Of a DNA stretch of 64,000 nt, positions 15,527-56,393 are shown in pieces; position 1 is the stretch's first letter; each line of letters starts with the position of its first letter. The stretch is taken from contig CAWGLD010000005.1 of the NCBI GenBank assembly GCA_963823335.1, positions 1 to 64,000 on the forward strand, given 5' to 3'. Below the pieces are notes generated by a model. It was not told the DNA's origin, did no database searches, and saw nothing but the letters and a program-made list of their open reading frames with translations. The stretch comes from an uncultured delta proteobacterium. GTDB taxonomy: Bacteria > Desulfobacterota > Desulfobacteria > Desulfobacterales > B30-G6. The position numbers were made by a program, and so were the translations under genes.

Positions 15527-16630
15527 ATGAATCAGATTGGGTTCCCATATATATCCTCGTTGCGTTCCGCACAGCATTTAATGCAGGATGCTGTATCCGA
15601 CGGGACTTTCCCGGGCGGTGTTTTGCTGGCCTCGAAGGATGGCGATGTCCTGATTCACCAGGCATTCGGGCAGGCCGATCTGGTCGCCGGCACTCCGGTT
15701 TCGACCCGAACTATTTTCGATCTGGCGTCTCTCACCAAACCTCTTGCTACGACCCCGGCCGTCCTGATGCTGATGGAACGTGGTCAACTGACGCTGGACC
15801 ACACTATCGGCGACGTCATGATATCCTGCAGAGAGACAGACAAGGCAGACATTACCATCAGACAACTGCTGTATCACAGTTCGGGCTTGCCTGATTACCG
15901 TCCCTATTTCAAAAAACTGGCTGACGAAGACCCATCCAGAAGAAGAACGTTGATCCTGGAAATGATTCTGAACGAACCCCTGGCATATCCTAGCGGAGAA
16001 AAGGTGCTATACAGCGACCTGGGGTTCATGCTCTTGCGGGGGATCGTCGAGACGCTCAGCAGCAGTCGTCTCGATGATCTGGTGCGAAAGGAAATCTACC
16101 TGCCGCTGCAGTTGAAGGATCTGTTTTTTGTGGACACGAAATCCCCCCTGCCACCAGAAGACCGGTTTGCCGCAACCGAGACTTGCCCCTGGCGTCACAC
16201 CAAGATTCGGGGTGTGGTCCACGATGAGAATGCTTTTGTCGTTGGTGGTGTGGATGGTCATGCCGGTTTGTTCGGTACGGCTTTCGATGTGCATTGTCTG
16301 CTCGTGGAAATGTTAGGCTTGTATTCAGGCGCTTTGTCTGATCACATATTCCAACCGGATTTGATTAAAGAATTTCTGGATTATGGAAAAGGAACAGAAC
16401 GGGCACTGGGGTTTGATCGACCGGCAGCAAACGGGTCGGCCAGCGGCTGTCGTTTTTCCCAAAACAGTGTGGGACATCTGGGGTTTACGGGAACCTCTTT
16501 CTGGATGGATCTTGATCGTTCAATTATCATCATCCTTTTGACCAACCGGATTCATCCGGGGCGCGACAATGAAAAAATCCGCAGTTTCCGACCGGTTCTG
16601 CATGATGCGGTTATGGAAACGCTGCGCTGA
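15527..16630 (+). CDS. Serine hydrolase (beta-lactamase-related family)
   Basis: FDLASLTK (SxxK), YSDLGF, GHAGLF, GHLGFTGTS. Confidence 0.9.
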   Translation: MNQIGFPYISSLRSAQHLMQDAVSDGTFPGGVLLASKDGDVLIHQAFGQADLVAGTPVSTRTIFDLASLTKPLATTPAVLMLMERGQLTLDHTIGDVMISCRETDKADITIRQLLYHSSGLPDYRPYFKKLADEDPSRRRTLILEMILNEPLAYPSGEKVLYSDLGFMLLRGIVETLSSSRLDDLVRKEIYLPLQLKDLFFVDTKSPLPPEDRFAATETCPWRHTKIRGVVHDENAFVVGGVDGHAGLFGTAFDVHCLLVEMLGLYSGALSDHIFQPDLIKEFLDYGKGTERALGFDRPAANGSASGCRFSQNSVGHLGFTGTSFWMDLDRSIIIILLTNRIHPGRDNEKIRSFRPVLHDAVMETLR

Positions 16631-16825
16631 TATTTGCCCTGCGGGCGACATTCGCGCTTCGCGCGTCATTTGTCCTCCGGACGACATTTGCACGTTGTGC
16701 GTCATTTATCGCTGCTCATAGCAACAATGAATGACAGCGAAGCGAATGACAACAAATAACACGAAGTTAATGACCCATTTATAGCGGCGAAGCCGCAGCA
16801 AATAAAATCGCACAGCGATTTTATT
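16629..16825. repeat. GTCATTT + GNA-triloop hairpin micro-array, locus 1
   Basis: Four 18-nt units followed by an inverted arm of AATGAC units. Confidence 0.8.
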
Positions 16826-17028
16826 CTTGTAATAATTTAAGAACTTTGATAGCGCTCATCTGTTACAAAAAGTGACTGCGATTGTGGCGCAAGGGCTGTT
16901 TTAAGGTAGGAATTCAATTTACTTAGGTGAAAACGAGCGTACAAATCAGGCTCAAAACCGGCTATCGTTTTGCACTAACTGGCGACATCGTCGCGGTTTA
17001 TAATATTGTTAAATGATTTAACCTATAG

Positions 17029-47696: not shown

Positions 47697-47802
47697 TACC
47701 CAGGGTCGGAGGGTTAGAGGTTTGAAGGGGTGGAGGGTAGCTGACAGTCTACAGTTTAAATAGCTAAAATCGTTTTGAAGGGAATAAAAAGATCGTCATC
47801 TC

Positions 47803-49787: not shown

Positions 49788-50225
49788 CTAGCCGTTGTGG
49801 TTCAGATCGATTAGTGCTTGTTGGAGGGCCTGGTAAACCATCTCGGGGATGGTAGCCACTTTCAGTTCCAGGGGATTTCTGGCATCCATACATATCCGTT
49901 TTTCGGTGCCCACCACCATGTGCCGGCCATCTTCTGCACGGGTGATGAGGTGCTCAAGTGTCAGCCCTCTCTTGTTCAGGTCTTGGAGCCGCGTGAGGAT
50001 CTTGAGCCGCTGATGATAACGCCCCGCACGCAGGTACCGGCACTGGGTTTCCGCCAGGCCAAAAACAATGCCATGATCCTTCCACAGACGATCGTGCCGG
50101 ATGCCGATGACTTCGAAGAATTGATGTGCACAGGCATCGAACCATTCATAGTAACGCGGGTAGAATACAATGCCGAGTGCATCGAGATCACCCCACATGA
50201 TGCGTTTTTCAACGGTGTTTTCCAT
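49788..50225 (-). CDS. Acyl-CoA thioesterase (4HBT/YbgC hot-dog fold)
   Basis: WGDLDALGIVFYPRYYEWFD. Confidence 0.9.
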   Translation of the reverse strand: MENTVEKRIMWGDLDALGIVFYPRYYEWFDACAHQFFEVIGIRHDRLWKDHGIVFGLAETQCRYLRAGRYHQRLKILTRLQDLNKRGLTLEHLITRAEDGRHMVVGTEKRICMDARNPLELKVATIPEMVYQALQQALIDLNHNG

Positions 50226-50391
50226 TATGGATCCTTCTATACTTATTGTGATAACCGATTACTTTTTACTGCTTCTGAAGACCTGATAGCATTTTAGGGG
50301 TTTAGGCTGTAGGCTGTTAGGTGTTATTCGCTGATAGCTGTCAGCCACCCTCCAACCCTTGTATCACCCTCAGACCCTCGGACCCTTCTCT

Positions 50392-51660
50392 TTAATCCCC
50401 ATGCACCCGCCACATGTCTTCGTCTGTGTAACATTTTTCAGGGTTGGCATCCGCTCCCCTGGCGTCCATTTCGACATTTCGTATCGCTGGGGATGATGCG
50501 AGAATTTCACGGTAGTATTCATGCTGAATCAGCAGGTTCATGATTTCGTTGGTGCCGGTCCATATCTGCGTCAGACGGATATCTCGCACGATTTTTTCGA
50601 TGGGGTATACCTCTGTGTAACCGATTCCACCCATGATCTGCATGGCCTTGTTGGCAATTTCCCAGGCCGCATCGGTGGCAAATTTTTTGGCCTCACTGAC
50701 GAGTCTCCTCGCGTTGGGCGCCCCGGTGTCCACGGCGCGGGCCGCCATATAAACGATAGCCCGGGCGGCGTCCAGTTGTGTAATGGCATCCGCCACCATA
50801 AAATTGACGCCCTGGAACTTGCGGATGGCTTTTCCAAAAGCAAAGCGCTTGTCGCTGTAGCGCAGTGCAAGATCAAGCCCTGCCCGGACCCCCAGGCTTG
50901 CCGCAGCAGAGGTCAGGCGTTCTGGAATCATCATCTGGTGAAAGACCAGTGAACCGGAGTTCATATCGCTGATCAGATTCTCTTTAGGCACGCGGACATT
51001 TCTAAAGACAAGACGTCCGGTGCCGCCGCCCCGGGTACCCATGAGACCGTACTGGTATTCGGTTTCCACCCCCGGACCCCGTTCGATCAGCAAGGCACTG
51101 ATCCGTTCATACTTGTGGGCATTCTCGTCAAAGTTGGTCCGACAGTAAACCAGAAAAACATCGGCTTCGGTAGCTCCCACCACAAAACGTTTCTGGCCAT
51201 TGACGATGAAGTGATCGTTTTTCAGGGCGGCTGTTGTGGTGGCCCCAAAAAAGTCTGAACCACCTCTGGGTTCTGTCAGGGCTTCGGCACAGATGAGCTT
51301 GCCCTGTAGGATCGGTTTCAGAAATTTTTCTTTCTGGGTTTCGGTTCCAAATATGTGCAGTGCTTCACCGACGATGGAGGGCATCACGAAGGCACATCCC
51401 AATGCGGTTCCCAGGACACCGATTTCCTCTTCGGCAATGACCTCAGCGGTCCATGACAGACCGCGTCCGCCCCATCTGGGATCGAAGCGCAGACCGAGAA
51501 GATTCCTTGCGGCCAGTTTTTCGACGTATTCACGCGGGTATTCAATCTCATCCTTATCCATGGCACGGATCAAATCAGGAGACACGTCATCGCGTACAAA
51601 TGCCCTGACTTCCGCCTGGATGGCTTTTTCTGCATCAGTCATCATGCTGTCGTAAAACAT
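50392..51660 (-). CDS. Acyl-CoA dehydrogenase
   Basis: ALTEPRGGSD, NGQKRF, MGGIGY, IWTGTNEI; AAAGGAGG RBS before ATG 51660. Confidence 0.95.
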   Translation of the reverse strand: MFYDSMMTDAEKAIQAEVRAFVRDDVSPDLIRAMDKDEIEYPREYVEKLAARNLLGLRFDPRWGGRGLSWTAEVIAEEEIGVLGTALGCAFVMPSIVGEALHIFGTETQKEKFLKPILQGKLICAEALTEPRGGSDFFGATTTAALKNDHFIVNGQKRFVVGATEADVFLVYCRTNFDENAHKYERISALLIERGPGVETEYQYGLMGTRGGGTGRLVFRNVRVPKENLISDMNSGSLVFHQMMIPERLTSAAASLGVRAGLDLALRYSDKRFAFGKAIRKFQGVNFMVADAITQLDAARAIVYMAARAVDTGAPNARRLVSEAKKFATDAAWEIANKAMQIMGGIGYTEVYPIEKIVRDIRLTQIWTGTNEIMNLLIQHEYYREILASSPAIRNVEMDARGADANPEKCYTDEDMWRVHGD

Positions 51661-51678
51661 TTTGCCTCCTTTCCGAGG

Positions 51679-51899
51679 GTCATATAGCCTTCGGCTGTCA
51701 TTTGCACTTCGTGCGTCATTTGCGCTGCGCACGATATTAGGCCTGCGGCCGTCATTTATCCTTCGGATGTTATTAGCGCTACGCGCATCATTAAGCCTTC
51801 GGCTGTCATTTATTGTTGCTCACAGCGTATTGCTCGGAGTTTATTTAAAACTTAACACCTAAAACTTAACACCACCCTTAATGACGTGAAACAAATGAC
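51679..51899. repeat. GTCATTT + GNA-triloop hairpin micro-array, locus 3 (seven 18-nt units plus short inverted arm)
   Basis: Exact 18-nt period over 51679-51804; inverted TAATGAC-GT(GAA)AC-AAATGAC at 51879-51899. Confidence 0.88.
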
Positions 51900-51904
51900 T
51901 TGCT

Positions 51905-53218
51905 CTATCCTTTACGATTATTTTCTAATACTGCGAGTCGCTTAACGAGCGCAAGCACCCCCTCCAACGTAGCGCCCTTGAATCGGATACCGAGAGCGGC
52001 CACGAGCATGTCCAGGCTGATCAACCGTTTCTGTTGTGCCAGGAGGCTCAATGCCACCATGGCCATATCCTGGCGCTTGATCTTATTTCCCTTGAAGTCA
52101 ATGGGTAGTATGGTGCCGCGACACTTCGGGATTTCTGCCTTTGAATCCGCCAAGACAAAGGTGTCATCACTGCAGGTACTGAATACCGCTTTTTTGCGGT
52201 CGATGCCTTCCTGTCCCAGGGCCAGAATAACATCTGGTACTGTGATGCCGGCGTAGTCTATTTTGTCGGGGGATAAAATCACCTCACAGGCCGAGTGTCC
52301 CCTTAGAACCGTAATCGGGTAATCATTTTTCTGGGTTGCATGGAGTCCGGCCGTGAGTCCGGCATAGCACAATATCTCACCGGCGGTAACGATCCGCTGA
52401 CCGGCACTTCCCAGAATCAAAATTTCTTTGCGGTCGTTAAAGAGAGCTGGAAACTTCTTTGACACCTCCATGGGTGCCGGCAATGGTTTCTGCAAAGAAG
52501 CCTTTTGTCTATAGTGCTCACCGTACTCCTCCCGAATGTTTTCCGAAACAGGTCCATGATAGGTCGGCAGGCTGTCGATGGATGCCTGGATGGTCTTGAA
52601 GGTGGTTTTGTTTTGGCGGGTGTAACGACCCGGGCAGATGCCCCAGATGTCCATGGTGGAAAAGCCCTTGAATCGAATGGCCTGTTCCATTTCTGTTGAA
52701 AGGTCACTCTGGTAGGCAGAAACTCGGGTAACATAGCCTGCCCCGGCTGCGCGCACTACCCGGCAGGCATCCATGGGCTTCTCTATCTGGTTGAGAAAGC
52801 CGGATCCCACCAGTGCATCCTGCGGTGTGGTGACCGAGAACTGACCTCCGGTCATTCCATAATTGAAATTGTTGAGGATCAGCAAGGTGATGTCGATGTT
52901 GCGTCGGCAGGTGCTGAGCAGGTGGGCACCGCCGATACCCAGACCGCCGTCCCCCATGGTGACCACCACATGAAGATCGGGTTTCGCCAGTTTGATGCCC
53001 GTGGCATAGGTCAATGCCCGGCCATGGAGGCCGTGAAAAGCATGGGTCTTGAAAAAGGTGTCGAAAAGGCCTGAACAACCGATGTCACTAACAATAACGA
53101 CCTGGTTTTCGTGGATGCCCATCTGCAAAAAAGTCTTGTCCAGGGCGCGTGTCACGACCTCGTGAGAGCAGCCGGGACAATAGGCCGGCGGTCTGGAACT
53201 ATTGATAAAACTAGGCAT
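51905..53218 (-). CDS. 2-oxoacid:ferredoxin oxidoreductase beta-gamma fusion
   Basis: YCPGCSH, DIGCS, GDGG...NNFNYGMTGGQ (TPP binding), followed by gamma-like GSAGQRIVTAG. Confidence 0.9.
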   Translation of the reverse strand: MPSFINSSRPPAYCPGCSHEVVTRALDKTFLQMGIHENQVVIVSDIGCSGLFDTFFKTHAFHGLHGRALTYATGIKLAKPDLHVVVTMGDGGLGIGGAHLLSTCRRNIDITLLILNNFNYGMTGGQFSVTTPQDALVGSGFLNQIEKPMDACRVVRAAGAGYVTRVSAYQSDLSTEMEQAIRFKGFSTMDIWGICPGRYTRQNKTTFKTIQASIDSLPTYHGPVSENIREEYGEHYRQKASLQKPLPAPMEVSKKFPALFNDRKEILILGSAGQRIVTAGEILCYAGLTAGLHATQKNDYPITVLRGHSACEVILSPDKIDYAGITVPDVILALGQEGIDRKKAVFSTCSDDTFVLADSKAEIPKCRGTILPIDFKGNKIKRQDMAMVALSLLAQQKRLISLDMLVAALGIRFKGATLEGVLALVKRLAVLENNRKG

Positions 53219-56189: not shown

Positions 56190-56393
56190 AGCAAATAGCA
56201 ATGTGCTGTAAGCCATAAGCGGTCTAAAGCTTCCCGGTATTCCGGTATAAAAAAGGGTTCGAGGGTTAGAAGAGCAGGGATCGAGGGTCCGTGGGGGATA
56301 TGAGGGTTTGAGGGTAGGAGGTTTGGAGGGGTGGCGGGTAGCTGAGAGCTATCGGCTATTAGCAATTTGCAGCCTACAGTCTAAATGCCTAAA
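56190..56393. repeat. Composite degenerate octamer/heptamer repeat; relatives at 47701-47770, 50294-50387, 54580-54780
   Basis: GAGGGTTY-type octamers, then GGGTRGCWGA.AGC and CAGCCTACAG.CTAAA blocks. Confidence 0.7.

Follow-up and report, generated by a model that had tools for sequence, protein, structure and literature searches.

Several kinds of short structured repeat are known from bacterial genomes. Repetitive extragenic palindromic (REP) sequences are 20-40 bp long and carry a GTAG or CGTC tag; in the CGTC type the stem measures 8-9 bp and the loop 4-5 nt, and roles in mRNA stability have been proposed for REPs (PMC3733652). For the intervening sequences (IVSs) of 23S rRNA and their S23p genes, although familiar for decades, there is no account of origin or spread; those bearing an open reading frame (ORF) are sporadically distributed and suspected of horizontal transfer, and IVSs are excised by RNase III cleavage (PMC4990558). 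The S23p protein belongs to PF05635, a family that first came to light in 23S rRNA IVSs. The solved S23p protein of Xanthomonas campestris is a homopentamer of four-helix bundles (PMC4990558), and PDB entry 2GSC is named as a representative of PF05635 (PMC10053308). At the level of DNA structure, the GCGNAGC motif class has been described as extraordinarily stable mini-hairpins (PMC13037366). Here we analyzed an array of short hairpin units at positions 51679-51899 of a 64,000-nucleotide stretch, hereafter the window, of contig CAWGLD010000005.1 (assembly GCA_963823335.1) from an uncultured delta proteobacterium of the Desulfobacterales, which a sequence-only reading had proposed as a candidate undescribed repeat system.

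We found that the array is a member of a genuine dispersed repeat family, built from GTCATT words and self-pairing spacers, and that GTCATT-armed elements are linked to one PF05635 clade across three phyla. The array itself is probably part of a palindromic word-repeat element, forming the long arm of a copy that has no gene and is carried as a co-transcribed structural passenger hairpin. No published description of such elements was found in our literature searches, consistent with the status first proposed for the array.

Results

Structure of the array and of the repeat family

On the + strand, positions 51679-51804 consist of seven consecutive 18-nt units, which form the long arm of the element in the GTCATT reading. 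Each unit comprises a heptamer near GTCATTW followed by an 11-mer of the form NNNC-TNC-GNNN with its outer four bases paired. The units are GTCATAT-AGCC(TTC)GGCT (starting at 51679), GTCATTT-GCAC(TTC)GTGC (51697), GTCATTT-GCGC(TGC)GCAC (51715), GATATTA-GGCC(TGC)GGCC (51733), GTCATTT-ATCC(TTC)GGAT (51751), GTTATTA-GCGC(TAC)GCGC (51769) and ATCATTA-AGCC(TTC)GGCT (51787). Their stems, in order AGCC, GCAC, GCGC/GCAC, GGCC, ATCC, GCGC and AGCC, contain a sole mismatch, in unit 3, which is C.A on the GTCATT strand and a T.G pair on the minus strand. The minus strand is the mRNA sense strand of the flanking genes and reads AATGAC with C(GNA)G loops (GAA, GAA, GCA, GCA, GAA, GTA and GAA, all closed by C-G). 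Tandem Repeats Finder reported periods of 18, 36 and 54 at 51679-51813. The units are followed on the + strand by a junction and loop-side tail at 51805-51845 (GTCATTT-ATTGT, then TGCTCACAGCGTATTGCTCGGAG...), in which the heptamer at 51805-51811 continues into ATTGTTGCTCACAGCG...; this GTCATT(T/C)ATTGT junction is common to nearly all arrays and to the gene-bearing elements. The element loop also holds two copies of a 14-nt module, TAAAACTTAACACC, at 51846-51873, composed of 7-nt CTAAAAC/TTAACAC words and present in many other family copies. A short inverted arm, AATGAC-GTGAAAC-AAATGAC, lies at 51880-51899; it is kept in the relatives G007, G005 and G006 and is degenerate in G001. The seven units, tail and inverted arm given by the sequence-only reading match base for base, and its description of every minus-strand loop as GNA closed by C-G is accurate for all seven units.

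Across the 4.37-Mb source genome, a perfect 4-3-4 hairpin follows GTCATTW at 66 of 1329 sites, where about 5 would be expected at 1/256 (our own arithmetic). Among perfect hairpins with C...G closure behind a good heptamer, loops rank TTC > TGC > TAC, a bias that is absent from hairpins without a preceding heptamer. Seed matches formed 353 clusters; 298 single-seed clusters were left out of the array set, and the 55 loci with at least two seeds include 38 arrays of at least three co-oriented units. To avoid selection on the hairpin, 186 units were picked inside arrays solely by the presence of two heptamers exactly 18 nt apart. Perfect pairing was present in 144 of these (77%) and three pairs in a further 35, whereas 2000 shuffles of the 3' half-stems gave 14% perfect on average and 23% at most. 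When only the 69 distinct 11-mers were counted, 55% were perfect versus 8.6% in shuffles, and the perfect stems fell into 14 distinct types. The first loop position was T in 180 of the 186 units and the third was C in 165, and the second was free (T in 108, G in 49, A in 23 and C in 6), differing even among copies of one stem type. Covariation statistics of this kind had been suggested together with the original prediction, and both of its structural propositions hold genome-wide: pairing is kept across differing stems far above shuffles, and the G-N-A / T-N-C loop constraint leaves the middle base free. The observation that the mismatch becomes a G-T pair on the minus strand is right for unit 3 of this array and does not hold as a general rule, since 17 mismatches were G.T on the AATGAC strand versus 12 on the GTCATT strand, no signal of a strand-specific wobble preference.

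Aligned in one orientation, the 38 arrays are a mosaic of modules in fixed order: n units, the junction GTCATTTATTGT, 7-nt AGCT-type words and right-side modules, often comprising ACAATAAATGAC and a right arm like ACGAAGT-AAATGAC-CAT-AAATGAC-GCGAAGC-AAATGAC. Words of the CTAAAAC and ACCCTCNA types are optional modules. Copies with and without the gene have the same inner junction, GTCATT(T/C)ATTGT...ACAATAAATGAC. The unit types are few and are reused in recurring orders, such as GCAC-GTCC-GCGC-junction, indicating that the arrays are diverged copies of multi-unit sources and that much of the apparent covariation is inherited from source elements. These recurring orders speak against in-place diversification of stems. 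The predicted fold of complete copies is one long branched hairpin: GTCATTT words of one arm pair with AAATGAC words of the other, the spacers form side hairpins, and fold z values are -1.5 to -9 relative to mononucleotide shuffles.

Association with a PF05635 four-helix-bundle gene

A profile search found 20 PF05635 matches in the source genome. One of them, at C1:744972-745094, has seven heptamer-like words upstream and seven inverted words downstream, and the other 19 have at most two per side. Its arms consist of GTCATT and GC-rich hairpins with TTC/TGC loops, mirrored by AATGAC and GNA hairpins, and its inner junction reads GATCATTCATTGT...ACAATAAATAAC; the gene is a frameshifted pseudogene. 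Separately, five of the 20 matches score identically (67.5 bits), suggesting recent copies. The gene-bearing element lies between homologous flanking genes in G002, G004, G007, G009 and G013, and the ORF is uninterrupted in these five relatives and in G012. In G005 the ORF is truncated, in G003 a contig end interrupts it, and in G008 a 24-residue remnant is left; it was not found in G001, G006, G010, G011 or G014. The ORFs of G004 and G013 match PF05635 at 95.7 and 87.6 bits, respectively, and both also match TIGR02436; that of G004 additionally matches PDB 2GSC (E 2e-6). Examination of the genes enclosed by opposed arms, for which the sequence-only reading had named a RAYT (REP-associated tyrosine transposase) and a four-helix bundle among its candidates, thus yielded the four-helix bundle and no link to a RAYT. 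Genomes with an intact gene have 61, 111, 3, 46, 18 and 22 pattern matches and those in which none was found have 1, 10, 8, 2 and 2, which suggests, for a few related genomes, that gene presence goes with array abundance.

We extended the search to other phyla through five genomes reached via loci L015, L020, L031, L042 and L051. GTCATT/AATGAC arms were present at 3 of 30 PF05635 loci in these genomes, two in Bacteroidales and one in Calditrichaceae (armed genes L214, L222 and L225), the locus in the Calditrichaceae metagenome-assembled genome (MAG) having nine GTCATT words upstream and eight AATGAC words downstream. In a tree of 44 proteins, from which rows with stops or lengths outside 90-200 residues were left out, the eight GTCATT-armed proteins require a single change, a value reached by 0 of 500 label shuffles. 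The armed group has a support of 69/65 and lies inside a clade of 11 supported at 96/99, whose three unarmed members carry other arm words.

Orientation, genomic setting and turnover

Gene context was scored with crude longest-ORF calls across the genome. The array head points toward a gene start in 28 of the 38 arrays, and a gene end lies on the tail side in 27. Between co-directional genes, the AATGAC/GNA strand is sense in 21 arrays and antisense in 4; the remaining settings are divergent in 7 and convergent in 6. The binomial value of this orientation bias is about 0.001 (our own arithmetic), arrays in one operon being non-independent. Arrays fill consecutive gaps in rows of genes, for example at C1 380-385 kb, C1 503-510 kb and C8 92-98 kb, and + and - arrays alternate within a few kb on one contig, so that orientation tracks genes rather than contig position.

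Two co-directional operon genes on the minus strand flank the array at 51679-51899, which takes up all of the gap between them. The upstream gene (51905-53218, stop codon 51905-51907) encodes a 2-oxoacid:ferredoxin oxidoreductase subunit with TPP_enzyme_C and POR domains, and the downstream gene (50392-51660, ATG at 51660-51658) encodes an acyl-CoA dehydrogenase. Five nucleotides separate the right-arm end from the oxidoreductase stop codon, and the first heptamer begins 9 nt past the Shine-Dalgarno GGAGG of the dehydrogenase gene (51669-51665). Both neighbors are metabolic, in line with the earlier statement that no cognate enzyme gene is adjacent. A signal scan of the sense strand of the gap revealed no promoter-like or terminator-like site; a lone terminator-like match on the + strand equaled shuffle expectation and was discarded. 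No ORF was found in the loop of this copy, and Rfam 15 covariance models gave 0 matches at E <=10 in 50200-52100 on both strands. X6, a contig from the RNA library of an estuary sample, links the two flanking genes and has 223 different letters where the 286-nt gap would be; it comes from a variant population and is no evidence on transcription of the 51679-51899 copy. Other RNA-library pieces that match the array derive from other copies of the family.

The orthologous gap varies between species. It holds 7 units in the source genome (G000), 7 in G007, the first two being of other types, 3 in G005, 2 with a complete right arm in G006 and, in G001, a remnant of GTCATTT, 14 nt and the degenerate right arm. 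Unrelated repeats or other sequence take its place in G004, G009, G008 and G010. Elsewhere in G007, very long regular runs of units occur at C3:242267-243047 and C8:60193-60427, with 54- and 64-nt spacing and a GCGC-stem unit repeated more than 12 times, which indicates that higher-order tandem blocks are one form in which arrays can expand. Two other word repeats were seen nearby. One, TTAGGCTG / CTGATAGCTGTTAGGGGTTTACG, lies at 50283-50341, just 3' of the acyl-CoA dehydrogenase gene, and this repeat type occupies the orthologous GTCATT gap in G004, G009 and G008. The other consists of 8-nt words, AGGGTTGG / ACCCTCNA, in tandem runs beside GTCATT arrays at 47702-47738, 50366-50386 and 56302-56339 of the window and at many other loci; these runs present successive GGG runs on one strand and could form G-quadruplexes.

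Distribution of the family and further copies in the window

The two-heptamer pattern was detected in 16 of 41 genomes searched, including all 9 searched from the genus and all 14 from the family, and in 1 of 26 from other families of the order; a reversed control pattern gave 0 matches in every one of the 41. A scan of species genomes yielded at least 124 loci, and 63 of these 124 hold at least five exact words. Among the 80 loci with titles listed, the array-like ones come from Desulfobacterales or 'delta proteobacterium' MAGs, many Bacteroidales, Lentimicrobiaceae and Rikenellaceae MAGs, one Calditrichaceae MAG and one short contig labelled Acholeplasmataceae. The loop rule recurs in 26 non-delta loci, with T-N-C on the GTCATT strand in 54 of 57 hairpin spacers, at least 26 of which are there by the locus-finding criterion, and words are spaced 10-11 nt apart in many Bacteroidales and Calditrichaceae arms. 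Viral contigs gave 92 pattern matches, none with five or more words nearby (maximum 4) compared with 63 of 124 bacterial loci; these matches are at chance level, and the family is not seen on viral contigs. Many of the arrays in fragmented assemblies are found no more than about 100 nt from the end of a contig (G003:C611:7-31 and G002:C506:73-97, for instance). Short-read assemblies are probably interrupted by these repeats and undercount them.

The window contains two further loci, as the sequence-only reading had it, both given here on the + strand. The copy at 16629-16774 comprises four units, a central hairpin (GTCATTTATCGCTGCTCATAGCAACAATGAATGAC) and an inverted arm, and its first heptamer shares bases with the stop codon that ends a beta-lactamase-family gene. 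The copy at 41950-42019 has an AATGAC arm only, with spacers ACGCAGT, CAT and GCGC-GTA-GCGC, and a small central hairpin (ATTGT...ACAAT); it sits between the co-directional ORFs 40405-41946 and 42052-43449. Within the 64-kb window alone, a loose pattern is weakly enriched, with 43 matches versus 29.1 expected, a count reached by 1 of 100 shuffles. Beyond the copy at 16629-16774, a separate hairpin, AAATAAAATCGC-ACAG-GCGATTTTATT, lies at 16800-16830 and is followed by a T-rich stretch; it resembles a terminator and lies upstream of mreB.

Discussion

We favor a model in which the array is a structural passenger derived from a gene-bearing palindromic element. In complete elements, a small PF05635 gene lies between GTCATT words in the left arm and AATGAC words in the right. 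Each 7-nt word pairs with a word of the opposite arm, and each 11-nt spacer pairs with itself in a four-pair stem capped by a C-G-closed GNA/TNC triloop. The spacers being self-contained, arms that differ in unit content can still zip via their words to give a single branched hairpin. Both the gene and the greater part of the right arm have been lost from the 51679-51899 copy, which would be part of the operon transcript, its AATGAC/GNA strand being the one present in RNA. The folded element may be tolerated as a passenger, and it may be cut by RNase III like an IVS (PMC4990558) or shield the ends of mRNA, a role put forward for REPs (PMC3733652). Unit number would change through slippage or recombination between the repeated heptamers, and spacer self-pairing may be kept since a branched hairpin stays compact when the arms differ, or, by an idea of our own, through intrastrand template switching that corrects quasi-palindromes. 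A wider interpretation, which we put forward tentatively, is that the GTCATT word and C(GNA)G spacer serve as the specific recognition scaffold of one lineage of pentameric, Avd-like four-helix-bundle proteins. Protein and word arms together would be a self-propagating element of an undescribed kind that lacks a recognizable transposase, has reached three phyla or more and has left each genome with dozens of arrays that contain no gene; the rRNA IVS would be a special case.

Several observations weigh against this model. The only GTCATT-type four-helix-bundle gene in the source genome is a pseudogene, so nothing there can now act on the approximately 50 arrays via that protein. Arms of gene-bearing elements have five-pair stems and a period of about 20, versus four pairs and 18 in the arrays; clade support for the armed proteins is modest (69/65); and the abundance correlation covers 15 related genomes with exceptions, such as G009, where an intact gene goes with 3 matches. 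The copy at 51679-51899 has a weak global fold (z of -2.1 and -2.2 on the two strands), because it has no gene and only two right-arm words. Its transcription and processing draw no support from the RNA data, which are assembled contigs from which RNA ends are unreadable, and the sole such contig bridging both genes carries 223 other letters instead of this element. The orientation count rests on crude ORF calls, with arrays inside an operon non-independent, and no target-site duplication or clean empty site was present in the orthologous gaps compared. In addition, C(GNA)G is an especially stable class for DNA hairpins rather than RNA, and therefore fits an RNA-level role less well. The loop rule fits this very stable class of DNA mini-hairpin, and the arrays may accordingly have a role at the DNA level.

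A DNA-level explanation is that the arrays act as single-stranded DNA, with the C(GNA)G hairpins arising beside the word on one strand while the DNA is replicated or transcribed and being recognized by a strand-specific enzyme (HUH or other) or by the replication machinery, and with the enzyme making and moving the copies. The G-N-A loop, the C-G closure and the free middle base match the GCGNAGC class (PMC13037366), right arms contain the literal GCGAAGC, and the loop rule extends to the other phyla, within the selection noted above. By contrast, none of the eight Y1_Tnp (PF01797) genes lies within 7 kb of an array, the distance to the nearest array ranging from 7.3 to 105 kb, and only 0-3 GTCATT/AATGAC words occur within 1.5 kb of each, which speaks against the HUH/RAYT substrate idea of the sequence-only reading. 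No transposase linked to the arrays was found in the source genome, and the four-helix bundle was the only gene found between arms, no search having been aimed at a GxxExxY nuclease. Array orientation follows local gene direction and not contig position, and complete elements carry GNA loops in the 3' arm of both strands, leaving no unique strand to recognize. We consider this explanation unlikely. The Y1 domains at C7:406630, C2:74509, C1:783095, C4:395371 and C4:263972 lie in unusually long open frames of 327-456 codons, which could reflect fusion to further domains, and GTCATT arrays are near none of them. Simple slippage, which would make a tandem repeat with hairpins arising by chance, would account for the variation in unit number between species, but is refuted by the differing stems within one array, by the excess of perfect pairing over shuffles, by the conserved loop rule and by the presence of some 50 dispersed loci across genera. 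A CRISPR-like reading was likewise dropped on description, given a 7-nt constant part, a palindromic variable part from a small repertoire and about 50 loci.

It is similarly improbable, in our view, that the arrays are double-stranded DNA or RNA binding platforms through which the pentameric four-helix bundle, or a nucleoid protein, regulates neighboring genes. Such a role would fit the finding that each four-helix-bundle sub-lineage has its own arm word, the 10-11 nt word spacing in many Bacteroidales and Calditrichaceae arms, which is about one helical turn, the position of the array against a ribosome-binding site, and the resemblance of PF05635 to Avd (PMC10053308). However, the arrays persist in the source genome although the cognate gene is broken, the flanking genes share no common function, and different repeats fill the orthologous gap of other species, which argues against gene-specific regulation. 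We regard as quite unlikely the remaining alternative, an ordinary host repeat of the type found in REPs and bacterial interspersed mosaic elements (BIMEs), unrelated to the four-helix-bundle gene and inserted by chance on both sides of it. The family is indeed mosaic, modular, located between co-directional or convergent genes and plausibly transcribed, as are REPs (PMC3733652). Nevertheless, the same protein clade and the same word recur in three phyla with the same left/right arm order, the inner junction is common to gene-bearing and gene-less copies, and there is no association with RAYTs. A match to an already described REP/BIME class, which the sequence-only reading had named as a refuting outcome, was not found, as neither the tags nor the sizes agree.

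The occurrence of the same clade with the same word in Desulfobacterales, Bacteroidales and Calditrichaceae, together with dozens of gene-less arrays among ordinary genes, makes the question of IVS origin and spread testable, through protein-word binding, hairpin excision from mRNA and the way in which copies arise. For annotation, much of the unusual intergenic DNA of these genomes is explained by the family. In operon biology, its members are structured inserts that occupy precisely the space from a stop codon to the following ribosome-binding site.

Among known systems, the short tandemly repeated repetitive (STRR) heptamer repeats of heterocystous cyanobacteria, BOX elements and further modular intergenic repeats share intergenic tandem 7-nt words or a modular build; to our knowledge, STRR and BOX-type repeats have not been reported with interleaved self-pairing spacers. 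Avd, an accessory protein of diversity-generating retroelements, binds nucleic acid and reverse transcriptase. The resemblance of PF05635 to it is one of protein fold family only. Miniature inverted-repeat transposable elements combine terminal inverted repeats with a target-site duplication and a transposase-bearing parent; here inverted arms are present, neither a duplication nor a clean empty site was found, and the gene-bearing parent encodes a four-helix bundle and not a known transposase. The d(GCGNAGC) mini-hairpin corresponds to the spacers, NNNC-GNA-GNNN on the AATGAC strand, and is found literally as GCGAAGC in right arms, but it is a structural motif rather than a genetic element.

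Two of the closest systems each share part of the design. Like REPs and BIMEs, the family forms mosaic clusters of numerous small palindromes, sits between co-directional or convergent genes and is probably transcribed (PMC3733652), and its location is of the REP type on the crude ORF calls (27 of 38 with a gene end on the tail side, and 21 between co-directional genes in one orientation). Unlike them, it has an 11-nt palindrome with a four-pair stem and a 3-nt loop, the fixed part GTCATTW and no RAYT nearby. Like the 23S rRNA IVSs of Coxiella burnetii and Leptospira, it has inverted repeats that form a stem around a loop with a PF05635/S23p ORF (PMC4990558), and complete copies fold into such a long stem, the 51679-51899 copy keeping two right-arm words. 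Unlike IVSs, the GTCATT copies lie between protein genes and not in helix 9, 25 or 45 of 23S rRNA, their arms are arrays of 7-nt words with self-pairing spacers as opposed to a plain 28-bp stem, and most copies, including that at 51679-51899, have no ORF. The family may therefore be viewed as a cross between REP/BIME mosaics and ORF-bearing rRNA IVSs that lacks defining features of both; what is new here is the design of word plus self-pairing spacer, the loop rule, and the tie to one protein clade across three phyla.

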